A DNA stretch of 32,000 bases from Planctomycetales bacterium. GTDB lineage: Bacteria > 4484-113 > JAFGCY01. This document shows, in pieces, positions 16,101 to 32,000 of this stretch. The notes beneath the pieces are model-generated. The model had not been told where the DNA came from. It did not search any database and worked only from the letters and a program-made list of their open reading frames with translations. Each line of letters opens with the position of its first letter. Position 1 is the first letter of the stretch. Location of the stretch: contig CP060262.1 in NCBI GenBank assembly GCA_022646745.1, positions 1,080,001 through 1,112,000 on the forward strand. The letters run 5' to 3'. The position numbers were made by a program, and so were the translations under genes.

Positions 16101-16457
16101 CCTGACCAGGCTCTCGCCATCCACATCAATCTCCTCAGCCCGCAGGCTGAACACGCTGTTCGTGGGGTCGAGTGCGCCACTGCCTGACTGGGCTGCACTG
16201 GCCTGTGCAGCCAGTGTGGCACGCAGCTGGGCCTGCATGCTCCCGAGGAGCTGTTCATACTGCTCGTCGTTCCCGGCCTGCCTGAACCGCTGACCTGCCG
16301 GAATGCTTCCCTGCTCCGGGTCATCCGCAATGAAATTGCCATTTCCACCCGGTGAAGGCAGCTCAGTGTTCGATGCATTGATTCCGCATCCCGCATGGAA
16401 TAGCAGGCATACAGTGACGGACAGGATCAGCAGCGAGGTTCTTTTGATATCTTGCAT
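13104..16457 (-). CDS. Large exported lipoprotein: dockerin-like repeat pair + PKD-like array + Asp-box (BNR-like) C-terminal region; paralogue 1
   Basis: ORF 13104..16478. ATG 16457 (MQDIKRTSLLILSVTVCLLFHAGCG) has AGGA 6 nt upstream and avoids overlapping the upstream gene. Dockerin-like: GDYNGNGLVESSDLVPLAANFG and DGDHNGLLGLGDLATIARHYGE. PKD-like: FDASASNDETGEIVLYEWDLDGDGQLE...LRVTDDHGG, FSGSDSHDPEGSALDYSWSV...LEVSDSLGS. Asp-box-like: ATDASGQAWEQ, AADASGSSWNAG, AQDATGSAWDAA, GTDAVGSSWDAG, AGDAAGLSWSP. Confidence 0.85.
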   Translation of the reverse strand: MQDIKRTSLLILSVTVCLLFHAGCGINASNTELPSPGGNGNFIADDPEQGSIPAGQRFRQAGNDEQYEQLLGSMQAQLRATLAAQASAAQSGSGALDPTNSVFSLRAEEIDVDGESLVRLQWTDNLQGDYNGNGLVESSDLVPLAANFGQAIGYVDGSTAGDPLRQPAGDFRTDPVNWRLARIDGDHNGLLGLGDLATIARHYGERLDGYRVYRRLPGAEAEMLPWPNAPEAPLSVALRDGSSPGLGIQQYVDYAPVLGAAEYFVTTYNVAEDEEGPASNLAGHFRNTPPVASFTVDDLLGTVPQKITFDASASNDETGEIVLYEWDLDGDGQLELSGPQLKQVSGYYDSAVDIEVSLRVTDDHGGVDWTSQRLVVGEPPAAVLRASHESGFSPLVMNFSFAESSSPQGLDLQLHFKLRSADATLIDSPVAINSVQSFYLETGIYTGTLTVSDEYGGVAVDSRTVTVSQIPQTGNQRPVAVASASRLEAQPGWQISFSGSDSHDPEGSALDYSWSVDNPFSDEVDEDFANSEVEFDYVFETGGTKLVELEVSDSLGSTDTDSLVLDIAPHPVLVWNFEEPATVLTDEKLRFRANSCYSLVGGALSYQWTAPDHASQNYSTSDYFDVSFDEPGTYEIDLQLRDVLNQYTYGSFTINVLQRPQASVQIDQQYGLPGRSVTIDASASASIHGGISEYRWYYTWLGQDDPDVAGKDPVLVFEDPGDSLARAIRLVVVDELGYESDPLSLDLYYGWHDYYLDSDIPSGPSPDEMYSESGGLLHDTGSELHVYHFSEVGLGSILFRKLDWSGGPQVTDPVLVNHDGRLLGAGDIAGVPYVCTRGNDPDDELIHFMLATDASGQAWEQKLELAMPSNVNTACFAVIDGIPSIFRSNYNAPSYEIWMHRAADASGSSWNAGQYMMTTGRRADYLYAASIAGHPAIVYSTYESSGTMKLQYSRAQDATGSAWDAAQVLHDSRSAQALVELDSRPVVFAAGFQHYGWDTRLYMLRGTDAVGSSWDAGTVLEDLGYVFEGLDYAVVNGLPVICLTSFDGSMGRQNAVFEAGDAAGLSWSPIQLDYEVPWMQTRLRGLCELDGRLCMMGIGRDPLGAAEHPIRLMLKDN

Positions 16458-16465
16458 GAGTTTTC

Positions 16466-19400
16466 CTAGGGTGCCCATGGGGCGTCCAGCGGGTAATAGA
16501 TGTCCATCTTCCTGTTCCAGTGTCCAAGGTCGTCGCCATAAGTGAAGGTCAGCGGATAGCCATCGATGTCTAGCACCTTGCAGCTGAGCAGGGCTGACGG
16601 TCCGTAGTTGTCAACGAAACGCACCTCCGGCAGCCAGGCCTGGCCCGCACTGTCCGCCGCCTCCATGAAGCAGTGGCAACCACTCCAGTAACTGAGCACA
16701 GGCCGCCCCTGCAGCCAGTCCAGCTGTACCGGTTCCTGGCTCGGCAGGCTGGTCAGCCCGGGAATGTAGCTCCGGTTGGTCCAATCCCCTCCATCAGCGG
16801 CTGTCGCCCTCGCAAAGTAGAAGTCCTGTTCCTTGTAGTACCCCCTGCCAATCATCATGGCCACGGGCTTGCCGTCAAGTTCCACAAGATTGGCAACCAG
16901 CATGCCGTCATCCTGCTGCATGTCTATCGCCGGGTACCAGTCCTCTCCCCCTGCGTCCAGTGCTCTGGAGTAATAACTGCGAACGGGGTAGTTGCTGTTG
17001 TAGATGCTCCATGCCATCGCCGGTTTTCCCGCGACCACTGCCGCATACAGGTAGCATTCGTAGTAGGGTTGCTCGTGGTAGAGAATGATCTGTTCGTCTG
17101 ACCAGTCCGGCGATACCAGCGGATCCAGGTAGCGCATGGTGATGAACTGGTCACTGCTGTCCAGCATGATGATCCGGTCACCACTGAGCAGGAACTGGTA
17201 GTCCTGGTAATCCTGGTCCCCCCCGTAGCCAATGTATTCCGTCTCGGACCAGTTCGCCAGGCTCATGTCATCACTGACAATGTACCCGAGCGCATTTGGG
17301 CGGAAGAAGCAGACGTGCATCCGGCCCCCGATCACGGCTGCCAGCAGCGGCTGGCTCGCACCGGGCAGTTTCACCGGATCGGAAATCTGCAGTGATCCGC
17401 CTGCAGAGCTGATCTTCACCAGTGATCCGTTGTAGCCATCCTTCGGAAAGGCCAGGTAGCTGTCATCGCCATCCCTGGTACTGACGCAGTAATGCTTTAT
17501 GCCACGCCCACCCGGGCCGAAATGCAGGTCAATATCCGTGTCGATCCTGCCCCAGCCGGAGTTGAGATAATCCAGCGTGTACTTGGCCCAAGTGTCTTCG
17601 GCGTAAATCTCCAGGGTGACCCACATGCTGCCTTCCCACTGGAAGGGCTGGTGCTCGAATATCGGTTCCGAGGTTTCGATCACCTCGCCAGTCTGCAGTT
17701 TCCAGCGGTACTTCTGGATCCGTGCTCCGATGCTGCCGCTGGCATCGAATTCAACCACCCGGCCAGATGGGCCTTCCCGCTCCCGCAGTTCACTGACTGA
17801 TTTCGGGGCCGGTGCGTACTCTATCTCCAGGCTGGCAGTGTCGCTCAGCCCGATGCTGTCCGTGATCCTTACGCCAAGATTGATCAGGCCGGTGCCGGCC
17901 GGGGCTGTCAGGTTGACAATAGTGCCGGCATCCAGCGTTTCGAAGCTGCCGTCCCCATCAAGGTCCCAGTCGTAGGTCACTGGTCCGAATGTGAATACAT
18001 TGCTTGAAGCTGCCGAGTATTGCCGCGTGGTGCCGGCACGCATCCAGTCCTTTCCACTGATTTCGGCGATCGGTGGACCACCAATGCTGACCTGGGTATT
18101 GTTCGTTGCCGTATGGCCCTTGTCATCCGTGACGCTCAGCACCACATACTTGGTTCCGCCGGTTGCAAAGGACAGGCTGGCAAGCGCTTCATTCTCACCT
18201 GAGATGAACTGCGCTCCGTAGGCGCTCCATGCATACTGGACTATCGTGCCGACATTGCTGAAGCTCTGGCTGCCATCGGCCGTGATCACTTCACCTGGCG
18301 CTGCGATCTCAGTACTGAGCTCTATCACCGGTTGTGGCCTGTCATCATAACCCCACACCCGCAAGGACCTTGTCACAGCGGAGGTCCGTTGCTCTGAATC
18401 CGTGGCCAGCAGCCTGATTTCGTAGGTACCAGGCACCGGTAGTTTGAGGATGCCTTCGTAGTAGTCCGTATCGAAGAGTATCTCCCTGGGCTCCGGGCCT
18501 GTCACTTCCACCTTGCGGAGGATGACGGGAAGGAGGCCGGGGATCACCTCAGCACTGAGCAGGATGCCATCGTAGGTAAAGGTATCATCCGAGGAAAGGT
18601 TGAGCTTGACCTGCGGGGCACCGTCGACGGCGATCAGCCGGCTCAGTTCGGCTGTCCGGCCGAAGTTGTCAGTCACGAGCAGCCGGCAGCTGAAGCCGCC
18701 TGATGTTTCATATGTATGCTGCGCCAGCTGCGAATCCCCGGACTGGTCGATGCTGCCATCGCTATCAAAGTCCCAGGCATAGTCCAGGATCTCACCGTAC
18801 TCACAGGTGCTGGCCGAGGCATCAAACGCCACCGGCAGCGGACTGTCACCTGCTGCGGGCACAGCGCTGAACTCCGCAATGAGCTCACCCGGCCTCGTGT
18901 AATCCAGCGGCAGGCTCAGTGACCCCTCCGCTCCGGCGGCAATCGTGTACGGTGCCACGGAAAGCGTATGCACGCCGATTTCAGGCAGCTTGACAATGAA
19001 GCTGTAGCGCCGGTTGTTCAGCGCGATGATTTCGCTGTCCAGCCGGGAGATGCTCATCGGCGCTTCCGGCAGGCCCGGCCAGGGCAGCAGCTCGGCTTCC
19101 GCCCCGTTGAAGCTGTGGTAGACCCGGTAGCCGTCCAGCAGTTCGCCGAAGTGCTGCGCGATCGTTGTCACATCCGCCAGGCTGATTATGCCGTCGCGGT
19201 TGCCATCCACGCGGGAGCGCTCCCAGTTCGTCGTATCCCAGCCGTAGTAGTTGCCGTCCGGCCAGTACGCCACGCCATTGGCATCCAGCGGATCACGATA
19301 GGCAACAACTTCATCGAAATGCCTTGCCAGCGGCACGAGGTCCGCTGCATTGACCTGGCCGTTCCCGTCGTAGTCGCCACGCAGCACTTCCGTCCAGCTC

Positions 19401-19756
19401 AGTTCATACAGGTTGCCAGAACCGGGCAGTTCCTCAATCACCAGGCTGAATACCTCATTGCCTGCGCCGACGGCTGCCTCAGAAATGCCGCGGTCAGTGG
19501 TCTCACCGAGCTGCCGCGATAGCTCGCGCTGCAGTTCATCAAGCAGGCCGGACTGCATGTTTCCGATGCTGGCTGCAATATCCGCATCAGCGGATATCAC
19601 TTCGTTGGCAGCGGGAGCAGACGATCCCGGCTGGTTCGCCGCCTGTGTGGTAACACTGGAGTTGCCGGAGCATGCCGGCAATGCAAGCGCAAATGTAAGG
19701 GACAGCAGCCGTGCCGCCGTCCGCGGGCCTGTCGTCCGCAGCAATCTCAGATCCAT
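16466..19756 (-). CDS. Large exported lipoprotein: dockerin-like repeat pair + PKD-like array + Asp-box C-terminal region; paralogue 2
   Basis: ORF 16466..19768. ATG 19756 gives MDLRLLRTTGPRTAARLLSLTFALALPACSG (lipobox); 19768 is an alternative start. Dockerin-like: GDYDGNGQVNAADLVPLARHFDE and DGNRDGIISLADVTTIAQHFGE. PKD-like: FDASASTCEYGEILDYAWDFDSDGSID...LLVTDNFGR, VQYAWSAYG...LSVTDDKGH, VTYDWDLDGDGSFE...VRITDSIGL. Asp-box-like: ALDAGGEDWYP, ATAADGGDWTN, AADSAGQAWLP. Collinear with paralogue 1 (shared LDGYRVY..AEAE.LPWP..PEAP). Confidence 0.85.
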   Translation of the reverse strand: MDLRLLRTTGPRTAARLLSLTFALALPACSGNSSVTTQAANQPGSSAPAANEVISADADIAASIGNMQSGLLDELQRELSRQLGETTDRGISEAAVGAGNEVFSLVIEELPGSGNLYELSWTEVLRGDYDGNGQVNAADLVPLARHFDEVVAYRDPLDANGVAYWPDGNYYGWDTTNWERSRVDGNRDGIISLADVTTIAQHFGELLDGYRVYHSFNGAEAELLPWPGLPEAPMSISRLDSEIIALNNRRYSFIVKLPEIGVHTLSVAPYTIAAGAEGSLSLPLDYTRPGELIAEFSAVPAAGDSPLPVAFDASASTCEYGEILDYAWDFDSDGSIDQSGDSQLAQHTYETSGGFSCRLLVTDNFGRTAELSRLIAVDGAPQVKLNLSSDDTFTYDGILLSAEVIPGLLPVILRKVEVTGPEPREILFDTDYYEGILKLPVPGTYEIRLLATDSEQRTSAVTRSLRVWGYDDRPQPVIELSTEIAAPGEVITADGSQSFSNVGTIVQYAWSAYGAQFISGENEALASLSFATGGTKYVVLSVTDDKGHTATNNTQVSIGGPPIAEISGKDWMRAGTTRQYSAASSNVFTFGPVTYDWDLDGDGSFETLDAGTIVNLTAPAGTGLINLGVRITDSIGLSDTASLEIEYAPAPKSVSELREREGPSGRVVEFDASGSIGARIQKYRWKLQTGEVIETSEPIFEHQPFQWEGSMWVTLEIYAEDTWAKYTLDYLNSGWGRIDTDIDLHFGPGGRGIKHYCVSTRDGDDSYLAFPKDGYNGSLVKISSAGGSLQISDPVKLPGASQPLLAAVIGGRMHVCFFRPNALGYIVSDDMSLANWSETEYIGYGGDQDYQDYQFLLSGDRIIMLDSSDQFITMRYLDPLVSPDWSDEQIILYHEQPYYECYLYAAVVAGKPAMAWSIYNSNYPVRSYYSRALDAGGEDWYPAIDMQQDDGMLVANLVELDGKPVAMMIGRGYYKEQDFYFARATAADGGDWTNRSYIPGLTSLPSQEPVQLDWLQGRPVLSYWSGCHCFMEAADSAGQAWLPEVRFVDNYGPSALLSCKVLDIDGYPLTFTYGDDLGHWNRKMDIYYPLDAPWAP

Positions 19757-19899
19757 AGTCGTTCCCATTGCGGAACCAGTCCAGCCCCGACTGTCCCGTC
19801 TACAGCGTACAGCACTTCCCCAGTGCAGTAGATATATGGACGGCTATCAAGCTGCGAGGTTACAGATGAGGACGCTGCCCCGGTACTGACATGACCGGC

Positions 19900-22525: not shown

Positions 22526-22622
22526 ATGTTCTCAGACTCTCCGTGGCGGCGGCACCCTTGCCGCCGTCATCATTGCCCCGCCGGTGCCATCCTGGCACCA
22601 ACCGATTCGCCCCGCTCATGCA

Positions 22623-22691
22623 AGGCCAGATGTAGGGAAGGGCTACCATGCCCTTCCAATAGGGTGTCATGATGCATGCATCATGGCACAC
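22623..22691. repeat. 69-nt direct repeat, copy 1 (in the clpC leader)
   Basis: 62/69 identical to 22847-22915. Contains hairpin GGAAGGGC-TACCAT-GCCCTTCC (22636-22657) and the palindrome listed separately. Confidence 0.9.
22664..22689. promoter_or_regulatory. Perfect 18-bp palindrome CATGATGCATGCATCATG (22668-22685; 26 bp with one mismatch); candidate operator in the clpC upstream region
   Basis: Self-complementary, read directly. On the clpC (minus) strand it lies just downstream of the AT-rich GGTATATATAAAGGG stretch (22692-22706), the only -10-like string in this GC-rich leader. The second repeat copy has a degenerate version. Function is inferred. Confidence 0.35.
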
Positions 22692-22846
22692 CCTTTATAT
22701 ATACCTTGTGAGACCCCGGTTCACCTGAAACGGGACACTCGGAAGATTAACACGGGGTGAATTGACGTGCGATGCAAAAGGGGAGAAGACCATGAGAGTC
22801 GAGTGCACAGCACGAAATCACGCCGAAGGCGTGACCCATCCATCCG

Positions 22847-22915
22847 AGGCCAGATGTAGGGAAGGGCTACGATGCCCTTCCAACAGGATGCCAAGAAGCA
22901 CGCATCATGGCACAC
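22847..22915. repeat. 69-nt direct repeat, copy 2 (22 nt beyond the methyltransferase stop)
   Basis: Same element as 22623-22691. Hairpin GGAAGGGC-TACGAT-GCCCTTCC is conserved; the palindrome half is degenerate. Confidence 0.9.
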
Positions 22916-22937
22916 ATTTAACTTATGAAAGAATAAA

Positions 22938-25900
22938 TCAACTTAGTAGTGCAGACTTTCCCATCCTGTATTTCAATTGATAATTACAAATGTAATCTAA
23001 TTCATGCTTACTCATATGTAGAGCTTCTGCAAGTCTTACATCTAATTCATCAATTATTGCTTTGCACCTACTGGGCTGAAACTGCTGATATGTTACGGAT
23101 CCAGCAATACTATGTTTTGTTGGTATCATTTTACTATTTTCTAAAAGACAGTTCCAAAGTGATTCATTAATGCTTTTGAAATTTAGTTCCAATATTGACT
23201 TAGAAATCGGAAAATCCTTCACATCTCCGGGATTAAAATCGCGGCAATTGGTATTCATTATGTAGTATATGTAAAACAGTGAGCTATTGAAAAGTGCAAA
23301 TGCGAGATTCATTATCTGCTCATCCTTACACGGCATTACTGCTTCGCGGGTAGAGTTACCAACGACATTGTTATTAATGTACTTAGGAGGTTCTAACGTT
23401 ATTGTAAACCAATGTGCTATCCCTGTTTTCTTGTAATAGACATTGTAATCGCTCTTTCTTTTCAACTGAGAACCGAATCTGAGATTGCCATCTTTGAGTT
23501 TCGAATCAATTGATATTTGATGACGATCGCCATATTTCGGAATACAATTGTCATATTGATGTTCCTTATGCAATGCAAACATGATCTTCGAAGTAAACAA
23601 ATCCTCACGTTCGTCTTGATACCATTTAAGATATGAAGTTGTTCGAACCTGTTGATATTTAGTTGTTCTAGCCCTCAAATAGATTGCTAATCTAAAGTTT
23701 ACTCCATTAAACAGAACACTTGGATGTGCATCGGCACTCAAATTAATTATGAACAGTTGGCAATTACTACAATAGTGTTTATTAATCAGTGGGTTCATTC
23801 TGATTGTGCTATGACCACTCAGCGGCACAATCATAGAATCAATTCCGGTTGTTGAAACAAGATTTGAAACTCTTTCAATTATAAATGCGTAAAGATTGCC
23901 ACATTTCAGGGTATCATAGTTGATAATTTTATATTCCTTTATACCTCTAGGGTATTCTACGTATGGAGGATTCCCTATTACAACATCAAAACCCCCTTTT
24001 GAAACAATCCCGTGGAATTCTGCCCACCAATGAAATGGTGCGTGCTTGGTTTTCCATTTTAGATATTCGACAGTATTATCTGGATCTACTTTGTACTGTC
24101 TTGCTAAGTATTGATTCAGTTTGTTTGTCAAGTTAGATAATGCAACAATCAATTTCTCCTTCTCATCGCTAAACACCAAAGCACTTACGCCGGTTTGAAC
24201 TTGAAGATTTCTGTACTTGCGATACTGCTGATCTACATTCGATGCCGCATCTTTTATTGCTGGCAACTCATCCTCAAAATCAAATGAGGCATTTCCGCCT
24301 ATCGGTTGAAGTGCCCTTTTAACATCCATTTCGTTTGCAAAACCCACTAGCGAATTTCCAGCCCTGATATTGAAATCAATATCCGGCAGTGGCTCAATCT
24401 TCCCCACATCATCAATCTGGGCTACTAGCTTCAGGAATAGCCGGAGTTTGCAGATCTCACAGGCCTCATCCATTATGTCCACTCCATAGAGGTTGTCCAC
24501 AGCTATGGATTTCAGAATGAAGTACTCGCGGTTCGGATGCTGTGCAATGTTGTCCAGGACCTGTTCAAAGAACTTCTCATCGCCCAGGAAGGGCTTTCCC
24601 GCCGCATGCTTGTCGGATACATAGTCATTCATCCTGTTCAGGCAGGCATCGTATAGGGGCTGCAGCACATTGAGAGCTGCGAACAGGAAAGCACCACTGC
24701 CGACCGTCGGGTCCAGAACTGTAATGCCCAAGCTGACCTCCCCGCGGTGCACAGCGGTATGGTCACCATGCAAGGCGATCCAGCAGGCCTTGATCAGGTC
24801 CGTTCCCCCGGCAAGTTCAATCACATCCTGCATGAACTGGCGGATATCCAGGTTGTAAGTGATCAGGTCATTGATTTCGTGGAGATCCCCTCTGCTGAGT
24901 TTCTCCCTCAGCTCCAGGCAGCGTTGCCTGCGCTCTGAATATTCACGCCAGGTTTCCGTTGGCAGGCCAAGTTCGTCTCCAACCAGCCCGAGGTTATAGC
25001 GCTTTTCGAACATGCGCTTCTCTGGGTCCTGCATGCCTATCTTCACAAAGTCAGGCAGAGTATCCTCTGGAATGATGCCCCCATCTTCGTTAACCACACC
25101 CTTGCGAACTGCATCGTAGATATACCTGTCTGGGTCTTCCTGCAGCAGCTTCCAGACTGAGCCACCCTTCTCAAACGCAACAGCGCACTGCTCCTTCATG
25201 CGTTGCAGGATGAAAGGGATAATCGTGTTCTGGCTGATGTAACCTGTGATGTCCTCCTTCGTGTAGTAGGCCCCCATTTGCTTCTGGTTGATGTACTTCT
25301 CAAAGATGTAGCCAAGGACGTCCGGGTTGATTTCCTTGTCGTTGACAATCGCTGTCTCGTCAAGGTGCCACTTGAACTCATCAAAGAAGGCAAACAGCTT
25401 GTCAAATGCCTTGTCCGGGATGTCGATCTGCTCCCCACAGTGCTGCTCAACCTGGTGCTTCATGAAAAGGCCGCCGTTCAGATATGGCACCTGCTCCAGC
25501 AGTTCGTTCATCTTCTTTGAGCGGTCAGACTCTGGCTTGGCAAAACCCTCAAAGAACAGCGGGCAGAGGAATCTCCGGTAGTAGCTGTCCTTGCCAAGGT
25601 TCTTCTTTGCATACTTGAGGCGTTCTGAAAGGTAATCTATGTCCCCGTTGCCAAGGAACCCGCGCTTCTGGATGAAATAGATGAACATCAGCCGGTTGAT
25701 CATCACTGACACATACCAGCTCTGCTCATGGGCGTCATCAATTCCCGTAATGAGCTTTTCAAAGGCCTTGCGTTCCTTGTCAAACTTAGTGTAGAAGCTC
25801 TTTGTAACCTTGTCCTTGTTGAAGGCCGAACGCAGCCTTCCTGTTACATCGAGGATGTTGAGATTGCCAGCCTGCTCAAAGCTGAAACTGAATTTCTGCA

Positions 25901-26297
25901 GTGTCTGCAGCATCAACTCACCTGATTGTTGCCTGTTGAACTCCAGACTACGGGAAACCCGACGGCCATCTTCACGGTTGAACCAGTTCCAGAGCTGCTT
26001 CTCTTGTTTTGCATCGACAAAAATCAGGAGGTGCTCATGGGCTTGCTTCCTGATCTGCACGTGCAGCCTTGAACGGTGTGGGGTTATCGGAATCTGGCCG
26101 TTCTTGCCTGGATGCACCAGGAATATCTGCACGCCCTCCTGATCGGCGATAGCTTCAATCTTGTAGCTTTCGCCATCAAGCTTGATCGGGTCTATCCTGT
26201 TCTCATTCCTGCCCCAACCCAGTGCTTCCACGAACAGGTTACGGAAATCAAAAGCCTGGAGATACTTCCTAGCAAGTTCCTTATTGAAGGCAGCCAT
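22938..26297 (-). CDS. Gamma-class N6-adenine DNA methyltransferase, MmeI/PglX/Eco57I-like, with a C-terminal specificity region
   Basis: ORF 22938..26300. ATG 26297 overlaps the upstream TGA (TGATG), with GAGGTGA upstream. Motif X: QMGAYYTKEDIT. Motif I: VLDPTVGSGAFLF (nt 24681-24719). Motif IV: VVIGNPPYV (NPPY = nt 23961-23972). Helical-region strings RLMFIYFIQKRGF, YLNGGLF and INPDVLGYIFEKYIN are typical of MmeI/PglX/type ISP enzymes. About 340 aa follow NPPY and end in an LDVRLAEALHMSKHELDYI helix, as TaqI-C/TRD-type domains do. Confidence 0.92.
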   Translation of the reverse strand: MAAFNKELARKYLQAFDFRNLFVEALGWGRNENRIDPIKLDGESYKIEAIADQEGVQIFLVHPGKNGQIPITPHRSRLHVQIRKQAHEHLLIFVDAKQEKQLWNWFNREDGRRVSRSLEFNRQQSGELMLQTLQKFSFSFEQAGNLNILDVTGRLRSAFNKDKVTKSFYTKFDKERKAFEKLITGIDDAHEQSWYVSVMINRLMFIYFIQKRGFLGNGDIDYLSERLKYAKKNLGKDSYYRRFLCPLFFEGFAKPESDRSKKMNELLEQVPYLNGGLFMKHQVEQHCGEQIDIPDKAFDKLFAFFDEFKWHLDETAIVNDKEINPDVLGYIFEKYINQKQMGAYYTKEDITGYISQNTIIPFILQRMKEQCAVAFEKGGSVWKLLQEDPDRYIYDAVRKGVVNEDGGIIPEDTLPDFVKIGMQDPEKRMFEKRYNLGLVGDELGLPTETWREYSERRQRCLELREKLSRGDLHEINDLITYNLDIRQFMQDVIELAGGTDLIKACWIALHGDHTAVHRGEVSLGITVLDPTVGSGAFLFAALNVLQPLYDACLNRMNDYVSDKHAAGKPFLGDEKFFEQVLDNIAQHPNREYFILKSIAVDNLYGVDIMDEACEICKLRLFLKLVAQIDDVGKIEPLPDIDFNIRAGNSLVGFANEMDVKRALQPIGGNASFDFEDELPAIKDAASNVDQQYRKYRNLQVQTGVSALVFSDEKEKLIVALSNLTNKLNQYLARQYKVDPDNTVEYLKWKTKHAPFHWWAEFHGIVSKGGFDVVIGNPPYVEYPRGIKEYKIINYDTLKCGNLYAFIIERVSNLVSTTGIDSMIVPLSGHSTIRMNPLINKHYCSNCQLFIINLSADAHPSVLFNGVNFRLAIYLRARTTKYQQVRTTSYLKWYQDEREDLFTSKIMFALHKEHQYDNCIPKYGDRHQISIDSKLKDGNLRFGSQLKRKSDYNVYYKKTGIAHWFTITLEPPKYINNNVVGNSTREAVMPCKDEQIMNLAFALFNSSLFYIYYIMNTNCRDFNPGDVKDFPISKSILELNFKSINESLWNCLLENSKMIPTKHSIAGSVTYQQFQPSRCKAIIDELDVRLAEALHMSKHELDYICNYQLKYRMGKSALLS

Positions 26298-29200
26298 CAA
26301 TCAGTCACCTCGTTACGCAGCCCCATTGAACAGATAATCTGCGGTTCTTCATTCGGGCCTTCCGTTGGCAGGGAGCAAAGCCTGCCATCCTTGCGCAATG
26401 CAAGAACGGATTCCGCCAACTGGTGATCAGCAGCCTTAAGCCGCATCTGCCTGTTCAGGACATCCGTTGCATGGCCCGTCAAGGGATAGTTATAAATTTC
26501 CTGGATTGCTTCCTTGAGTGTTGTCAATTCCTCAGTACTGGCAAACAGGGAGTTCTTCTGTCTTTCAAGGTACCCGGACATTTTCTCATATGTCCGGTAG
26601 CGTGCACCCCGTGGGTTGCCAAGCTGGCCTCCCGCAAGCCTCGCCTGATCAGCAATCAGCAGTGCCCCCTGGGCGACCAGCTCATGGTGGTTTTCCAGTC
26701 TGCCTATGGCAGGCGTGGCCGCCGTACATTCGGCAATTTCAAGGATCCTGCTCTGGGACTCTGTCACGCTGTTTCCATTTTCATCCAACCACGCGAGGGC
26801 ATCCTGTCCCTCGCCGGTCCTCATGTAAAGCAATACTCCAGTGGGCGCATTCTCCCGCGGGTCATGCTGCTTAGTTGAATAGACCACGTTTGGCAGGGCA
26901 GGAATGATCTTCTTCAGCTTTGGATCAGCATCAGATGCATTCTTCCAGATCTGGTATGCACGTGATGTGAGATCAACGTCATCATCCTCCAGGTCATCCA
27001 GAGCAGATGACTTCTCGGTATAAAGGTCTCGCAGGTGCTGCTCAGGCATTGCATCCTCGAAGCCATATTCCTCATCAGTGCCAATAACCAGTGCATTTTC
27101 GCGAAGGCGGTTCTGCACCTTGCGCCGCAGCAGGATGATGTTCTCCACCCCTTCTGCCGGCAGGAAGGTGTAGCAGTAAATGCTGTCACTCTTCTGCCCG
27201 ATGCGATCAACACGGCCAGCCCGCTGTATCAGCCTGATGATTGCCCAGGGAATATCAAAGTTCACCACGATTGCGCAGTCCTGCAGGTTCTGTCCTTCGG
27301 ACAGGATGTCAGTTGTCAGCAGGACTCGGTGCTCATCCTCCGGCTTGATTCGATGCCTCTGCTCATTGCTGTCAGGGCTGAAGCGATATGCTGCCTCTGT
27401 GGGGTTGGAGGATGAACCAGTCACGCAGGCCAGCTTGTCAATTCCTGTGTCTGTCAGCTCGTTGTAAAGATACCTCACAGTATCTGCAAACTGAGAGAAT
27501 ACGAGGAACTTGGAACTTGGATGCTGCGCCAGCAGTGTCTTTAGTTCCTTTAGCTTGTTGTCCTTTGATGAGTCCCAGTTGCCAAACAACTCAAGCAGGC
27601 TGATGAGCGCTTCACAATCCTCAGAAAGATGCTCTGCAAGTTTCCCCGTCAGCAAGCTGCTGCGCAGCCACTTGTATCTCTTGCCAGTGCGGGACCGCAT
27701 CCAGTCATAATGCTGGCGAGCTAGATCCTTGAGTCCCGCTATTGCATCAGCAGTTTGCAGGTTCTCATCTGACTCGAACTCGGATTCGGAATCTTCATTG
27801 AGGAACTCGAGTTCGCCCTGGGCGCTGTCAACATCCTCGTCTGAATAGCGCGCATTCTGGATGCCTGCATCTAGGGTGCCGATGGGCACATCCAATCCGT
27901 TTTCGATCGCATATAGGAAAATGAAGTTTCGCAACAGGTGACTTCTAAGTGACAGTAAGAACACCTGTCCGCTGCTCTCCAGCCGCTTGAAAAGATTCGT
28001 ACGACAGAACCCGATAAGCCGCTGGCCAGCTTTGGTGAGATTTGCAAGCTGCTCCTTCTCTGAAGTAGTCGGTGCCTTGACAGGTACTTCATCGATGTAA
28101 CTTGCCAGGCCGTAGCGCGGCAGATGAAGCCGGTTTATCACCTTGACAACTTCATCGCTGTACATCAGTGCGTACTGATCAGTTTGGTCTTCATCATCAA
28201 CGGAAAACTTGATGGTCTTCGGAACTCGCTTGGGCAGGTAGAACCTGCGATCATCAGCGAATTCCATGTAATGGCGATCCTTCTGTTCGTCCAGCACTGC
28301 ATAGTTTGTCTTAATAAAAGAACGCGTGCGACGAACCATATACAGGCGCATCAGCTCCTGCCAGTCTTCCGTGTAGTCGCTGAGCATGAATGCCTTCAAA
28401 GTGTTTGGCTGGCATTGATGCTTGGCGGAAAAGACCGTCGCACTCATGGAGCGAAACAGTCTCTCGGGACGAAGTGTTAGTGCTTTTTCTGCATCAAGGA
28501 ACAGGTTGAGCTGGTTGCCAAGGTCCAGGAAGCACTTGTTGTATGGCGTAGCTGTCAGCAGAATGCACTTGCTGTCATTCTTGCCAATGTAATCCTGTAC
28601 GGTCTTGAATACCCGAGAGTCAGAGTTCCTCAGGTTGTGGCTCTCGTCGATAATCACTAGCCTGAAGCGCTTGAGATCCGGCAGCTCCTTGTTGACCATG
28701 CTCATTGACATCACCTGAGCATTGACAGCGAACTGTGTGCGGTAATCATTCCACATCGGTACAAGATTCTTTGGACAGATGATCAGAGTCTCATATGAGT
28801 AATCTTCCTGAATGACTTTTGCCAGTGCAGTTGCCATCAGGGTCTTGCCCAGTCCAACCACGTCCGCAAGCATGACGCCACCACGATTGATCAAGTGCCG
28901 AGCAGCAATCAATACCGCCTGCTCCTGGAAGGGCAGGAGTTTCCCCTGCATATCCTTGGGAATGGCAAAAGTTGCCAACCCTGCGCGTGCTTCCTGGGAA
29001 AGGTGGTACGCCATCTTGAGGTAGATATGATAAGGAGGCGGATCATCGGGACCAGCCCAGCTCTCCTCAATAATGTCAATCAGAGCTTGCGTGATGTCAA
29101 GGCTGCAGCGGTCATTCCAGCGTTCCTCAAACCAGTGGGCAAGTTTGTCCGCTGCATCGTTGTCAGTTACTTCCGTGTTCAATTCACCCTGAAGTGAAAG

Positions 29201-29704
29201 TCCGGACTTGGTCAGGTTGCTGCTGCCAAGGTAGCCTACCCTTGGCGTGATATTGTCATTTCTGTGGCATAGGTAAAGTTTCGCGTGCAGGCTATGCCTG
29301 AGGAATACCTTTACCTTTAGCTTTCCTGCGCGCAGCTGACCAACCAGCCGTTGCAGGCCAGCCTCGTCCTCTCCAGTGGGAATGCCAAACTCAAGTTGCT
29401 TGCGGAACTGCCTGGCTATTTCATCCTGCATTTCCTTAAGCTGCTTGTTATCCGGTGCTTCATGATCACCCTTGAGGGAATGCAGGCTGGCTTTCAGTTC
29501 ATCGTCAAGTGTGTAGCCCATCCCGACAAGCAGTCGGCAATAGTCGTTCTCTATGCCAGAGAATTTCTCGATTTCGGAGTCAATGATCTTCCAGCCACGA
29601 AGGTTAAAGTAACCAACGCTGAAGTCTGCCCTGTGAGAACCCTGTAGCGTTTCTCTTAGCGCAGGGGCTAATTCATTTTCTATGTTGTCGAAGATACGTG
29701 GCAA
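26297..29704 (-). CDS. Fusion protein: N-terminal PLD-family (single HKD) nuclease domain + SNF2-family helicase/ATPase + unassigned C-terminal domain
   Basis: 1135 aa. TTG start at 29704 with AAGAGG 6 nt upstream. PLD motif: LHAKLYLCH...GYLGSSNLT (aa 139-165). SNF2 motifs: LLPFQEQAV, DVVGLGKT (aa 281-288), IIDESHNLRN (351-360), LLTATPYNK, TTDILSEGQNLQDC, IQRAGRVDRIGQ (826-837). The stop TGA (26297-26299) overlaps the methyltransferase start. Confidence 0.92.
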   Translation of the reverse strand: MPRIFDNIENELAPALRETLQGSHRADFSVGYFNLRGWKIIDSEIEKFSGIENDYCRLLVGMGYTLDDELKASLHSLKGDHEAPDNKQLKEMQDEIARQFRKQLEFGIPTGEDEAGLQRLVGQLRAGKLKVKVFLRHSLHAKLYLCHRNDNITPRVGYLGSSNLTKSGLSLQGELNTEVTDNDAADKLAHWFEERWNDRCSLDITQALIDIIEESWAGPDDPPPYHIYLKMAYHLSQEARAGLATFAIPKDMQGKLLPFQEQAVLIAARHLINRGGVMLADVVGLGKTLMATALAKVIQEDYSYETLIICPKNLVPMWNDYRTQFAVNAQVMSMSMVNKELPDLKRFRLVIIDESHNLRNSDSRVFKTVQDYIGKNDSKCILLTATPYNKCFLDLGNQLNLFLDAEKALTLRPERLFRSMSATVFSAKHQCQPNTLKAFMLSDYTEDWQELMRLYMVRRTRSFIKTNYAVLDEQKDRHYMEFADDRRFYLPKRVPKTIKFSVDDEDQTDQYALMYSDEVVKVINRLHLPRYGLASYIDEVPVKAPTTSEKEQLANLTKAGQRLIGFCRTNLFKRLESSGQVFLLSLRSHLLRNFIFLYAIENGLDVPIGTLDAGIQNARYSDEDVDSAQGELEFLNEDSESEFESDENLQTADAIAGLKDLARQHYDWMRSRTGKRYKWLRSSLLTGKLAEHLSEDCEALISLLELFGNWDSSKDNKLKELKTLLAQHPSSKFLVFSQFADTVRYLYNELTDTGIDKLACVTGSSSNPTEAAYRFSPDSNEQRHRIKPEDEHRVLLTTDILSEGQNLQDCAIVVNFDIPWAIIRLIQRAGRVDRIGQKSDSIYCYTFLPAEGVENIILLRRKVQNRLRENALVIGTDEEYGFEDAMPEQHLRDLYTEKSSALDDLEDDDVDLTSRAYQIWKNASDADPKLKKIIPALPNVVYSTKQHDPRENAPTGVLLYMRTGEGQDALAWLDENGNSVTESQSRILEIAECTAATPAIGRLENHHELVAQGALLIADQARLAGGQLGNPRGARYRTYEKMSGYLERQKNSLFASTEELTTLKEAIQEIYNYPLTGHATDVLNRQMRLKAADHQLAESVLALRKDGRLCSLPTEGPNEEPQIICSMGLRNEVTD

Positions 29705-29851
29705 TTATTAGCCTCTTAACAACCCACCGGTTAGTTCCTCGGCGTTGGCATTTCGGGCCGTCGCCACTGGGAATTTATCATAGCATTAACAATCCCAGGC
29801 CGCTGGGCTCTGGGCTCGGGCCTGTCTTCCAACGTGTCGCAATTCCGGGGC

Positions 29852-29952
29852 GTAACGATACGTAGGCCCCAAACCTGCGGCCAGTGGCCTGTCGCATTTA
29901 TGCGATGTAACGATACAAAGGCCTGCTCCCTGCGGCCAGCGGCCTGTCTCAT
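29852..29952 (+). repeat. Tandem repeat with 55-nt period (two 46-nt cores, 37/46 identical), plus a partial earlier copy
   Basis: 29852-29897 is GTAACGATACGTAGGCCCCAAACCTGCGGCCAGTGGCCTGTCGCAT. 29907-29952 is GTAACGATACAAAGGCCTGCTCCCTGCGGCCAGCGGCCTGTCTCAT. GGGCCTGTCTTCC at 29818-29830 looks like the tail of a third unit. Palindrome TCGCATTTATGCGA at 29892-29905. Confidence 0.8.
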
Positions 29953-29977
29953 CCCTGTTCGACACTGATACCTTCTG

Positions 29978-30103
29978 AACACTGCCCACTGTTAACTGCT
30001 CACTGATTAACATCCCACATCCCCCATCCCGCATCCCGCTCCTGTCTCATCCCCTTCTCCCAACTGCGACCCCCTGATCCCCGGTCCCCGGTCCCAGGTC
30101 CCT
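29978..30103 (+). repeat. Three successive heptanucleotide arrays: (NNCACTG)x4, (ATCCCNN)x4, (GGTCCCN)x4
   Basis: 29978-30005: AACACTG CCCACTG TTAACTG CTCACTG. 30012-30039: ATCCCAC ATCCCCC ATCCCGC ATCCCGC. 30076-30103: GATCCCC GGTCCCC GGTCCCA GGTCCCT. Coordinates were cross-checked against flanking ORF-track boundaries. Confidence 0.9.
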
Positions 30104-30169
30104 GATTAACAACCGGTCCCCTGTACCAGTTGTCAGCAGAAAAACCCCGATTGTTGGGACATTTTCCGG

Positions 30170-30213
30170 CTGGAGGGGCTGCCGAGGGGGTCTGGAGGGG
30201 TGCTCAGGGGGGT
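30170..30213 (+). repeat. Tandem 22-nt G-rich repeat
   Basis: CTGGAGGGGCTGCCGAGGGGGT / CTGGAGGGGTGCTCAGGGGGGT. Five G4-G6 runs between 30174 and 30251. Confidence 0.85.
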
Positions 30214-30313
30214 CTCGCGACAGTTAGGTTAATAACGTCCGCAAAGGGGGGATCAGGCCCGATGGATACTGCCGATGCCGCCGGTGGCCGGGGATTAACT
30301 GTTAAAAGAGTAA

Positions 30314-30348
30314 CCAGTGGTCAGTGGTCAGTGGGCAGTAGGAACAGT
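30314..30348 (-). repeat. Heptanucleotide array in the opposite orientation (CCAGTGG TCAGTGG TCAGTGG GCAGTAG GAACAGT)
   Basis: This is the reverse complement of the CCACTGA/CTACTGC-type units seen elsewhere in the window. Confidence 0.9.
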
Positions 30349-30351
30349 TGA

Positions 30352-30441
30352 AATAGTATTGATAGTTTCAATAGTCAGATTTGAGAACGGACACTCCCGT
30401 GTACTCACTATTCGCACTATTCAGACTATCCAAACTATTCA
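30352..30441. repeat. Inverted pair of 9-nt-period arrays: (nATAGTnnn)x3 and (nACTATnCn)x4 around a 27-nt spacer
   Basis: 30352-30378: AATAGTATT GATAGTTTC AATAGTCAG. 30406-30441: CACTATTCG CACTATTCA GACTATCCA AACTATTCA. The hexamer cores are mutually complementary. The pair lies 44-133 nt upstream of the transporter start. Confidence 0.85.
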
Positions 30442-30484
30442 TACCTGGTCTCAAGTGCGTATGCGTGCCCGATAATTAAAGGAG

Positions 30485-32000
30485 GTGGATACAGCACCCA
30501 GAGCAGCGCAGACCAAAAACCAGTTCGGCACCTTCGCCGGGGTCTACGTGCCGTCCATCCTCACCATCCTCGGCGCGATCATGTTCATGCGCGCCAACTT
30601 CGTGACGGGCGAGGCCGGCATCATCGGCGCGCTGTCCATCCTGCTGTTAGCCAAGGCTGTATCAGTGCTCAGCGTGATCAGCGTCTCGGCGATCGCCACC
30701 AACATGACGGTGCGCGGCGGCGGGGCCTACTTCCTGATCTCGCGCTCGCTGGGGCCGGAATTCGGCGGCTCGATCGGCCTCGCGTACTTCCTCGCGCAGG
30801 CGCTGTCCATCCCGTTCTACATCCTCGGTTTCACCGAGGCGATGGCCTTCGCCCTGCCGCAGTACAGCGCCTGGAGCGCGGACATCGCCTATGCCGCGGC
30901 GGCGCTCCTGCTGGTCGTGGCCTGGGTCGGGGCCTCCTGGGCGATCCGCGTGCAGTACGTCGTGATGGGGGCGCTCGCGCTGTCGGTGGCGGCGATCTTC
31001 ATCACCGGCGGCATGCACTGGAGCGAGGCCACCTTCATGCACAACCTGGCGGCGAACTACACCCAGCACGTGGTGCCGACGCCCGAGGGGCAGGAGCCGC
31101 ACAACTTCTGGAGCATCTTCGCGATCTACTTCCCGGCGGTGACGGGCTTCCTGGCCGGCGTGAACATGTCCGGCGACCTGAAGGACCCCAGCCGCTCGAT
31201 CCCCAAGGGCTCGCTCCTGGCCGTGCTGACAGGCTTCATCGTGTACCTGCTGATCATCCTCGTGAACGGCGGCGCGTTCTCCCGCGAGCAGCTGATCAAC
31301 CAGCCGTTTGAGATCATGGGGCAGATGGCGCCCTTCGGCATGGGGGTGCTGATCGCGCTTGGGGTGGTGGCGGCCACGCTGTCGTCCGCGCTCGGCAGCT
31401 ACCTCGGAGCGCCGCGTATCCTGCAGGCGGTGGCGCGGGACAGGCTGCTGCCGTTCCTGAACCCCTTCGCCGGCGGATCGAAGAAGGGCGATGAGCCCCT
31501 GCCGGCGCTGGCGCTGACGGCGGTGATCACCTTCGGCGTGCTGTACTGGAGCTACAACATCGCCCAGGGGGACAGCTTCAACATCGTGGCAAGCGTGATC
31601 ACGATGTTCTTCCTTTATACATATGGCACGCTGAACCTGGCCGCCTTCACCGAGGCCTTCGGGCGCAACCCGAGCTTCCGCCCGCGCTTCAAGCAGTTCC
31701 ACTGGTCCACGGCACTCGTCGGCTTCCTGGCCTGCGGCGCGATCGCCTTCATCATCGACCCGCCGGCCGCCGTGGTGGCGGTGCTCGTGATCGGCGCGCT
31801 GTACTGGTACCTGCACCACCGCGAGCTCAGGGCCGCATTCGGTGATGCGCGGCGCGGCTTCATATATACAAATGTGCGCAACCAGCTGCTGCGCCTGCGC
31901 TCGATGCCGGCCGACCCGAAGAACTGGCGCCCGACGATCCTCGTGTTCACCGGCAACCCGAGCACGCGCGACTTCCTCGTGCGCTACGCCAACTGGCTGG
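30485..32000 (+). CDS. Cation-chloride-cotransporter (SLC12)-like amino acid/cation permease of the APC superfamily; 3' end lies outside the window
   Basis: Absent from the ORF track because it runs off the window. The frame is open from TAA 30473-30475 to base 32000. Signature strings: QFGTFAGVYVPSILTILGAIMFMRANFVTGEAG, GGGAYFLISRSLGPEFGGSIGLAYFLAQ, FPAVTGFLAGVNMSGDLKDPSRSIPKGSL, PKNWRPTILVF. The only in-frame start upstream of the conserved first TM is GTG 30485, which sits inside AAGGAGGTG, so the exact start is uncertain. Confidence 0.88.
   Translation, partial: MDTAPRAAQTKNQFGTFAGVYVPSILTILGAIMFMRANFVTGEAGIIGALSILLLAKAVSVLSVISVSAIATNMTVRGGGAYFLISRSLGPEFGGSIGLAYFLAQALSIPFYILGFTEAMAFALPQYSAWSADIAYAAAALLLVVAWVGASWAIRVQYVVMGALALSVAAIFITGGMHWSEATFMHNLAANYTQHVVPTPEGQEPHNFWSIFAIYFPAVTGFLAGVNMSGDLKDPSRSIPKGSLLAVLTGFIVYLLIILVNGGAFSREQLINQPFEIMGQMAPFGMGVLIALGVVAATLSSALGSYLGAPRILQAVARDRLLPFLNPFAGGSKKGDEPLPALALTAVITFGVLYWSYNIAQGDSFNIVASVITMFFLYTYGTLNLAAFTEAFGRNPSFRPRFKQFHWSTALVGFLACGAIAFIIDPPAAVVAVLVIGALYWYLHHRELRAAFGDARRGFIYTNVRNQLLRLRSMPADPKNWRPTILVFTGNPSTRDFLVRYANWL

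Follow-up and report, generated by a model that had tools for sequence, protein, structure and literature searches.

A PLD nuclease-SNF2 motor fusion and the adjoining adenine methyltransferase of a Planctomycetales bacterium: a probable two-gene restriction-modification system

What does a single polypeptide that carries a PLD nuclease at its N-terminus, an SNF2 motor and a further C-terminal domain do, and does the adenine methyltransferase gene beside it belong to the same system? We addressed this question for a gene of a Planctomycetales bacterium (assembly GCA_022646745.1) in a 32,000-nt stretch of contig CP060262.1 (positions 1,080,001-1,112,000), here called the window, with coordinates counted from its first nucleotide. 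A preliminary description of the locus, made from the sequence alone, had recognised the fusion and taken it to be the unusual feature. The domain content of the two encoded proteins, the conservation of their residues, the operon linkage of the genes and the island on which they stand lead us to the view that the pair is probably a horizontally acquired, stand-alone, two-gene ATP-dependent restriction-modification system, with the 1135-residue protein as its restriction subunit. The helicase-nuclease gene and its start are as follows.

26297-29704, minus strand, stop codon included: PLD-SNF2 helicase-nuclease gene, 1135 residues (open reading frame list, translation, domain matches, homologue clusters)
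29702-29717, minus strand: ribosome-binding site AAGAGG (29712-29717), 7-nt spacer and TTG start codon (29702-29704), read directly in the sequence

The open reading frame proposed at 26297-29704 was borne out, on the minus strand, which the preliminary description had omitted. The TTG start behind AAGAGG was likewise read in the sequence; two in-frame TAA codons stand immediately 5' of it, and the TTG falls exactly at the conserved Met with which the family N-terminus, MPRIFDNI, opens. Since homologues begin at this same position, the start is sound. An open reading frame of 1135 residues with four independent domain matches is no chance feature. The possibility that an assembly or frameshift artefact had joined two genes was ruled out by thousands of full-length homologues, and the description of a single polypeptide holds, with end-to-end homologues in thousands of clusters.

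The family is large. A word-indexed search saturated, with all 8000 scored candidates (clusters at 90% identity) passing E<=1e-10, so that at least 8000 clusters belong to it; the best 120 of these are 1122-1299 residues long (mostly ~1125-1150), span the whole query and share its Pfam domains. One genome per species was also scanned, which yielded 80 related loci in many bacterial phyla and in archaea, including Acidobacteriota, Chloroflexota, Planctomycetota, Cyanobacteriota, Bacteroidota, Actinomycetota, Spirochaetota, Nitrosopumilaceae and Bathyarchaeia, and homologues were found on 106 plasmid records. PADLOC holds the models 'HKD+Snf2' and 'PLD_Helicase', NCBIfam holds a PLD anti-phage helicase model, and HKD-Swi2/Snf2 helicases have been reported from 921 taxa of Type-2 BREX-related systems (PMC12839542). 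Given these numbers and models, and two solved PLD-SF2 fusions (SauUSI and MtsD), the claim that the fusion is unusual does not stand. The nuclease-motor fusion is real, neither artefact nor rare. The window gene typifies a very large, uncharacterised variant within a known type of system. The literature searched held no paper characterising this exact two-gene family. Conservation was scored in two sets, 117 family sequences and 74 full-length genomic relatives that are 36-57% identical to the window protein.

29060-29704, minus strand: N-terminal single-HKD PLD nuclease domain, about residues 1-215 (PLDc_2, RE_NgoFVII; alternating strands and helices in the structural model)
29216-29287, minus strand: catalytic motif H140-A-K142-LYLC-H147 ... 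G160-S-S-N163 (near-invariant residues in the 117 and 74 members)

Both Pfam PLD models exceed their curated cut-offs over residues 120-201 (PLDc_2, 40.5 bits against 27; RE_NgoFVII, 27.3 bits against 23.8), in support of the PLD fold first proposed for the N-terminus. H140-A-K142 is the sole HxK of the whole protein and is followed by G160-S-S-N163; residue 147, the canonical Asp position of HxK(x)4D, is His, as had been described together with the single HKD-type motif. Position 147 is Phe in 114 of the 117 relatives and Phe, His or Tyr in the 74-member set, with Asp not among the commonest residues listed for it in either set. The catalytic His, Lys and Asn are in place in the alignment: H140, G160-S-S-N163 and E174 are invariant in the 74 genomic relatives and invariant or nearly so in the 117, and K142 is invariant in the 117 and present in 73 of the 74. 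Because the Type IV enzyme SauUSI also deviates at the canonical position, with Glu, lack of the Asp does not argue against the predicted PLD activity. The preliminary description had further supposed that two copies assemble one active site and that cleavage may require motors to collide or dimerise. Its first part agrees with the precedents, two PLD domains per active site being established for SauUSI and for MtsD of the MANTIS system; the collision part does not, as both are constitutive PLD-held dimers. SauUSI is a PLD-held dimer that translocates along and shreds DNA (PMC7913695) and is reported to cleave without need for collisions (bioRxiv 10.1101/2025.10.16.682607), and MtsD was resolved by cryo-electron microscopy as a dimer with one PLD active site (bioRxiv 10.64898/2026.09.23.753747).

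28505-28972, minus strand: SNF2 lobe 1, about residues 245-400, with GLGKT 284-288, DESH 353-356 and TATP 384-387 (Pfam SNF2-rel_dom, ResIII, DEAD)
27740-27871, minus strand: disordered acidic inter-lobe linker, residues 612-655, containing residues 621-650 (predicted local distance difference test score, pLDDT, below 50; family comparison)
27080-27547, minus strand: SNF2 lobe 2, about residues 720-875, with motif VI QRAGRVDR 827-834 (Pfam Helicase_C; RapA lobe 2 match)

The motor is of SNF2 type, because RapA and then eukaryotic SNF2 remodellers (ISWI, Chd1, CSB, SRCAP) lead the matches in Foldseek and sequence searches of the PDB. Pfam domains and conserved motifs agree with these neighbours: SNF2-rel_dom (52.7 bits, with ResIII and DEAD alongside, residues 272-388) and Helicase_C (56.8 bits, residues 717-836) lie over their curated cut-offs, and GLGKT, the D-E of DESH, Q827, R828, R831 and R834 are invariant in the 74 genomic relatives, with TATP and QRxGRxxR also conserved across the family. 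The best PDB match of the family profile is RapA lobe 2 (1.4e-10; hhalign probability 96.7%). An AlphaFold2 model (117 sequences; mean pLDDT 76; numbered as the protein minus one) contains an N-terminal alpha/beta domain, two RecA-like lobes with a long helical insertion between them, a disordered segment where pLDDT falls below 50 (model residues 611-648) and a separate C-terminal domain. The invariance of catalytic residues in relatives as divergent as the 74 argues that nuclease and motor are both under selection for activity.

The acidic insert at residues 621-650 is as quoted earlier in sequence and in location, with 13 D/E among its 30 residues and a place between TATP (384-387) and Helicase_C (717-836). 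In the 74 relatives the segment equivalent to residues 612-655 measures 20-92 residues (median 45); its sequence is not conserved and its net excess of D/E is always +5 to +18. The acidic linker is a family trait, conserved in character only. Negatively charged linkers of BfiI and SauUSI have been proposed as DNA mimics that restrain the nuclease (PMC7913695), and by analogy it is reasonable to suppose that the inter-lobe linker could hold back the nuclease in the same manner.

26300-27052, minus strand: family-specific C-terminal domain, residues 885-1135, with GGQLGxPxGAR 1025-1035 and ICSxG 1124-1128 (conserved; small sheet with helical insert)

The C-terminal ~265 residues had been described as carrying no recognisable motif, and remote-homology, Pfam and PDB searches gave no assignment either: residues ~870-1135 had no match in Pfam, NCBIfam, PADLOC or PDB sequences, and Foldseek and family searches returned no SRA-, EVE- or YTH-like match. 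Within the domain W920, G1025-G-x-L-G-x-P, R1035, D1081, N1084-R and I1124-C-S-x-G, among others, are invariant. In the model, helices are followed by three to four strands (~940-980), five helices (1005-1104) and a last strand (1121-1129). A search with the domain found 688 matches among 1.84 billion representative proteins, and every full-length match places it at the extreme C-terminus of a ~1050-1250-residue protein (most 1085-1170), the rest being fragments; no other architecture was found in that set. The domain is confined to the PLD-SNF2 family.

A relationship of this domain to the C-terminus of RapA was considered because RapA and BrxHII helicases have been described with degenerate restriction endonuclease-like and alpha+beta C-terminal domains and because RapA is the best full-length Foldseek match. 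RapA was also the top, weak Foldseek match of the isolated domain (E=0.032, probability 0.47, TM 0.24), modelled at pLDDT 74.5. The relationship was not confirmed: hhalign against the RapA C-terminal family gave 0.1%, the full profile aligned with RapA lobe 2 only and Pfam RapA_C had no match. The alignment used for this question (A4) included loci L073 and L079 with guessed coordinates, which align poorly and add some noise.

22938-26297, minus strand: N6-adenine DNA methyltransferase gene, 1119 residues, with motif I DPTVGSGAF 529-537 and NPPY 776-779 (Pfam Eco57I)
26295-26299, minus strand: TGATG, stop/start overlap of one base, read directly in the sequence
25818-26297, minus strand: methyltransferase N-terminal domain, residues 1-160, LFxEELGW ... 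EHxIIFxD ... QxWQW (alignment A6, hhalign)
22941-24350, minus strand: low-GC C-terminal module of the methyltransferase, about residues 650-1119, with NPPY and the variable target-recognition region (GC content at third codon positions, GC3); the compositional mosaic as a whole takes in 22941-24450, about residues 620-1119

The second gene begins where the first ends, and the overlap of the helicase stop with the methyltransferase ATG suggests translational coupling. The neighbour was rightly called a methyltransferase and is a near-constant partner: 69 of the 80 related loci have a homologue in their flanks, in nearly every case as the next gene downstream and in the same orientation, and most of the loci that lack it end before the gene could fit on the contig. 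The protein matches the PADLOC model 'REase_MTase_IIG' (PDLC03628) end to end with 874 bits, and its best solved relatives are BrxX/PglX of BREX (~2e-11) and then TaqI, with MmeI matched at motif I only. The C-terminal third is the variable, least conserved region of the methyltransferase family, consistent with a target-recognition region. GC3 is 0.67-0.69 for residues 1-600 and 0.32-0.36 for residues 700-1119, and the switch adjoins the highly conserved EPLPDIDFNIRAGN motif (24354-24395), which points to a recent recombinational swap of the specificity-bearing half (NPPY and recognition region) from a low-GC donor. The ~160-residue N-terminal domain, with conserved E88-H89, D95 and Q101-x-W103, matched no nuclease family even at E<=10 and holds no D...(D/E)xK pattern. 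In 22 of the 80 related loci a DprA/Smf-like gene (DNA_processg_A) lies downstream of the methyltransferase, sometimes directly (e.g. L005:15322-15966, L017:17419-18255); the window lacks it, and it may represent a third, optional component.

The N-terminal domain of the methyltransferase is shared between two lineages. Eco57I/PglX-type and MmeI-type enzymes (partner METHYLTRANSFERASES) both carry the same domain when they follow a PLD-SNF2 helicase. The MmeI type is the one found in a divergent clade made up mainly of actinobacteria, where it replaces the Eco57I/PglX type. Three such cases were found, in Streptomyces (L073:11303-14095), on a Rhodococcus plasmid (L083:8462-11005) and on a metagenomic contig (L084:7001-9174). 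These partners match the MmeI spacer, methyltransferase, recognition and C-terminal families, with no N-terminal family reported. In hhalign the window-type N-terminal domain aligned to the Streptomyces partner at 98.9% and to the Rhodococcus plasmid partner at 97.9%; LFxxxLxW and xxLVIFxxxxxQxWxW are common to both partner types. The annotated start of the Rhodococcus partner probably cuts into the domain. A profile search with the N-terminal domain gave 33 matches, all short fragments, and a helicase neighbour was confirmed for the one that was followed. Because the two methyltransferase lineages share this domain and the helicases of both clades retain their C-terminal domain, these two domains are the leading candidate for a subunit interface, and the methyltransferase-docking role suggested in the preliminary description for the helicase C-terminal domain is still plausible.

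In the metagenomic sequence P0127, which looks clean, one frame leads from the C-terminal domain of the helicase through a ~30-residue linker to the N-terminal domain of the methyltransferase. Other database reading frames of such a helicase-methyltransferase fusion type, P0138 among those named, contain frameshifted stretches. All of these joined frames may be rare natural fusions or sequencing errors.

An orthologous pair with published methylation data resides on plasmid pSYSX of Synechocystis sp. PCC 6803 (L081). There the helicase-related SGL_RS01585 is 49% identical to the window helicase and slr6050 is 41% identical to the window methyltransferase over its full length. The product of slr6050 (M.Ssp6803IV) was tentatively assigned the one-strand motif GAm6AGGC, m6A being N6-methyladenine, and a slr6050 knockout never fully segregated (Hagemann et al., PMC6105098). 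A methyltransferase gene that resists loss would be expected beside an active nuclease, and the failure to segregate fits an active restriction partner, a link that we infer here. A VapBC cassette (a VapC-type toxin and a small upstream gene; 9478-10111 of L081) lies between SGL_RS01585 and slr6050, and several other related loci have insertions of 0.5-2.4 kb at the helicase-methyltransferase junction.

22530-30470, no strand: low-GC insert of ~8 kb, 35-55% GC in a host background of 60-67% GC (composition profile)

The window pair stands on an insert of foreign composition. It holds only the helicase and methyltransferase genes, plus repeat-bearing non-coding flanks, and is bordered by a ClpC-like gene and by a permease gene cut off at the window edge. 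None of the remaining neighbours is a defence gene.

Together these results can be read as one restriction-modification cycle. The methyltransferase would be the sole reader of sequence, with specificity set by its target-recognition region, and would modify one adenine of a short asymmetric site in host DNA, leaving it hemimethylated. Two copies of the helicase-nuclease would pair through their PLD domains to make one active site, as in BfiI, SauUSI and MtsD. A methyltransferase bound at an unmethylated site would then recruit or switch on the helicase-nuclease, possibly by contact of the helicase C-terminal domain with the ~160-residue methyltransferase N-terminal domain. ATP-driven movement along DNA, as expected for an SNF2-type double-stranded DNA translocase, would be followed by cutting at a distance; judging from Type III, Type ISP and MANTIS, cleavage would presumably be most efficient where two unmodified sites in inverted orientation enclose the DNA. 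The always-acidic disordered linker may act as an autoinhibitory DNA mimic. The domain order over the two genes is nuclease, motor, coupler, methyltransferase and recognition region, that is, the Type ISP order split in two.

Several points weigh against this reading. SNF2 motors such as RapA also work outside defence. The contact surface between the subunits is placed by co-occurrence only, and the methyltransferase N-terminal domain, with the IIG label of the protein and an unassigned fold, may hide a second nuclease. The searchable literature held no assay of any member of the exact family. For MtsD nuclease activity in vitro has not yet been shown (bioRxiv 10.64898/2026.09.23.753747), and for Synechocystis the slr6050 assignment is only tentative, its authors neither mentioning the helicase nor linking the essentiality of slr6050 to it (PMC6105098).

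Comparison with known systems places the pair near several of them and within none. Type ISP enzymes have the order nuclease, SF2 translocase, coupler, gamma-class N6-adenine methyltransferase and recognition domain. The same order of functions is found here over two overlapping genes, and methylation of one strand of an asymmetric site, as in LlaGI and LlaBIII, is suggested by the Synechocystis orthologue. A Type ISP enzyme, however, unites in a single polypeptide a PD-(D/E)xK nuclease of the Mrr type and a motor that is not of SNF2 type, and PDB searches gave no sequence match of the window proteins to Type ISP enzymes; the likeness is an architectural analogy, not homology. Two-subunit logic is shared with Type III systems, in which Res has a C-terminal PD-(D/E)xK nuclease and Mod is of the beta class, whereas the window nuclease is an N-terminal PLD domain and the window methyltransferase is Eco57I/PglX-like, with motif I before NPPY. 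CglI and NgoAVII (R2H2, ATP-dependent Type II) also combine an NgoFVII-type PLD nuclease with an SF2 ATPase, and RE_NgoFVII matches the window protein, but their nuclease and ATPase are separate subunits, the nuclease has its own B3-type recognition domain and the C5 methyltransferase is separate.

SauUSI, a Type IV enzyme of known crystal structure (PDB 7CLG), resembles the window protein in its N-terminal single-HKD PLD domain, SF2 translocase and C-terminal extra domain, in an HxK motif with a non-Asp residue at the canonical position and in an acidic unstructured linker proposed to regulate the nuclease. In SauUSI this linker lies between nuclease and motor, whereas that of the window protein lies between the motor lobes; furthermore, SauUSI works without a partner methyltransferase, and its target is methylated DNA, recognised by an SRA-type reader of 5-methylcytosine. 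The window gene adjoins a methyltransferase and its C-terminal domain has no SRA-like match, which sets it apart from the SauUSI-like Type IV class.

MtsD of MANTIS (Gao_RL, Type-2 BREX-related) also has an N-terminal HKD/PLD domain fused to an SF2 helicase-like ATPase and is encoded with a specificity-setting N6-adenine methyltransferase, MANTIS targeting unmethylated DNA. In MANTIS the methyltransferase determines the specificity of restriction, and inverted sites enhance it (bioRxiv 10.64898/2026.09.23.753747). The NCBIfam PLD anti-phage and PADLOC PLD_Helicase models, taken to represent the MANTIS/MtsD group, match the window protein at lobe 2; the NCBIfam model (895 positions) scores 139 bits against a cut-off of 1100, and the 250-residue C-terminal domain of the window protein lies past the end of its alignment. 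MANTIS differs in that four proteins are required, among them an AAA+ loader with DUF499 and a small protein with DUF3780/DUF3870; the methyltransferases of BR systems have DUF1156 as their N-terminal domain. None of DUF499, DUF3780/DUF3870 or a DUF1156 methyltransferase is among the open reading frames of the window. In DISARM class 1 (DrmD and DrmMI), BREX type 3 (BrxHII and BrxXI) and ARMADA II (ArmA and ArmB) an SNF2 RapA-like helicase stands beside a large PglX-like adenine methyltransferase; these pairs are embedded in multi-gene systems and their helicases lack PLD, DISARM having a separate DrmC. The window proteins give partial matches to the DrmD, BrxHII, DpdE, DrmMI and PglX models, far below the curated cut-offs (DrmD, 130 bits against 610; PglX models, 64 against 500). 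The window contains neither DrmA nor DrmB (DUF1998), and neither PglZ nor BrxC. Membership in DISARM, BREX or MANTIS was rejected, as the defining partner genes are absent from the window.

Three rival explanations draw on these same likenesses. The methyltransferase could be a bifunctional Type IIG enzyme with an N-terminal nuclease of its own, the PLD-SNF2 protein being an accessory, either a second nuclease or a processive degrader that acts once the methyltransferase has made the first cut. Such a reading would account for the whole-length match to PDLC03628 and for a conserved N-terminal domain located where Type IIG and IIL enzymes hold their nuclease, and a weak resemblance of slr6050 to HSDR_N was remarked by Hagemann et al. 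(PMC6105098). We nevertheless consider it unlikely, given that this domain shows neither a nuclease family match nor the D...(D/E)xK pattern, that the PDB profile search meets MmeI at motif I only and that the MmeI-like partners show no N-terminal MmeI family; the invariant PLD catalytic residues, moreover, argue that the PLD domain is the working nuclease. A different case can be made from the motor, which is closest to DrmD, DpdE, BrxHII and RapA, and from the methyltransferase, nearest BrxX/PglX among solved structures: the pair might be a BREX/DISARM-like exclusion module, or the helicase a RapA-like transcription or repair factor, in which the motor remodels or blocks DNA and the PLD domain does not degrade invaders. 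An SNF2 helicase is indeed paired with a PglX-like methyltransferase in ARMADA II, and DrmD with DrmMI in class 1 DISARM. Absence of PglZ, BrxC, DUF499, DrmA and DrmB from the window, invariance of the PLD active-site residues over wide divergence, the foreign composition of the insert, the many plasmid-borne homologues and the lack of detectably shared RapA accessory domains make this very improbable.

The remaining rival is an autonomous, modification-dependent Type IV enzyme like SauUSI, whose C-terminal domain would read modified bases while the methyltransferase is functionally unrelated. The domain order of SauUSI is matched and a reader role for the unassigned C-terminal domain is conceivable, yet a near-constant downstream methyltransferase with a start/stop overlap is hard to square with independence, and an enzyme that cuts m6A DNA would, next to an m6A methyltransferase, attack its own host. 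The domain has no SRA, EVE or YTH-like match, and among the 181 PDB sequences that the family profile hit, SauUSI is not in the best 60. We regard this explanation as highly improbable and retain the two-gene restriction-modification system as the probable one.

A broader proposal is offered tentatively, as a possibility that we do not favour over its negation. The pairs may form a widespread unrecognised class of split Type ISP systems, in which the PLD-SNF2 C-terminal domain couples to a docking domain that replaced the nuclease domain of Type IIG/IIL-like enzymes in both the Eco57I/PglX and the MmeI lineages, and in which the acidic loop, as a DNA mimic, keeps motor or nuclease off until an unmodified site is reported. 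If so, current defence-finding tools would register each pair as a lone Type IIG protein and miss the nuclease that does the work. Should the two-gene reading hold, thousands of genomes would contain a compact restriction system of two genes, with the nuclease annotated only as 'helicase-related protein' and the methyltransferase counted as a Type IIG enzyme. Census figures for defence systems and the reading of one-strand m6A motifs in methylomes (GAAGGC in Synechocystis) would be affected, and some 'orphan' methyltransferases that resist deletion would be accounted for. The minimal pair would also be a convenient model for how a methyltransferase passes an unmodified site to a PLD-motor nuclease, a step at issue also for MANTIS and BREX-like systems.

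The edges of the insert and the rest of the window add minor observations. No attachment-site-like direct repeats were found bounding the insert, and neither it nor its flanks yielded an Rfam, tRNA, promoter or terminator signal exceeding background. Two direct copies of an 86-nt element (22617-22702 and 22841-22926; 84% identical) lie in the 410 nt that separate the ClpC-like gene from the methyltransferase stop; each copy has internal palindromes (GGGAAGGGCTACCATGCCCTTCC; GTGTCATGATGCATGCATCATGGCACAC), there is no Rfam match, and the element may be a small repeat or the copies may be terminators. Upstream of the helicase gene is a ~770-nt non-coding region (29705-30475) with a tandem 55-nt repeat pair (29835-29944), a 22-nt tandem pair (30170-30213) and CAGTG-rich 29-nt inverted arms (29981-30009 and 30311-30339); the region matched no Rfam family and showed no promoter signal exceeding background. 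Beyond it, an open frame of more than 500 codons (30475-32000, plus strand) runs off the window edge and reads like an amino-acid or cation-chloride permease. A 385-residue open reading frame on the minus strand at 30662-31819, with an implausible Arg/His/Asp-rich translation and no family match, is probably spurious.

Several related loci (L013:4358-7900, L039:3393-6920, L017:14700-17414) have a defence-island-like setting, with genes for SIR2-DUF4020, a STAND NTPase with TPR, Schlafen/AlbA_2, RhuM-Fic and an IrrE-like peptidase, whereas the window pair lies between housekeeping genes. Elsewhere in the window, two adjacent paralogous genes for ~1100-residue PKD-domain proteins (13104-16478 and 16466-19768, minus strand) have reading frames that overlap by 13 nt. 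Near them are genes for a papain-like protease and PQQ-like beta-propeller proteins, presumably a secreted cluster unrelated to the helicase-methyltransferase pair.

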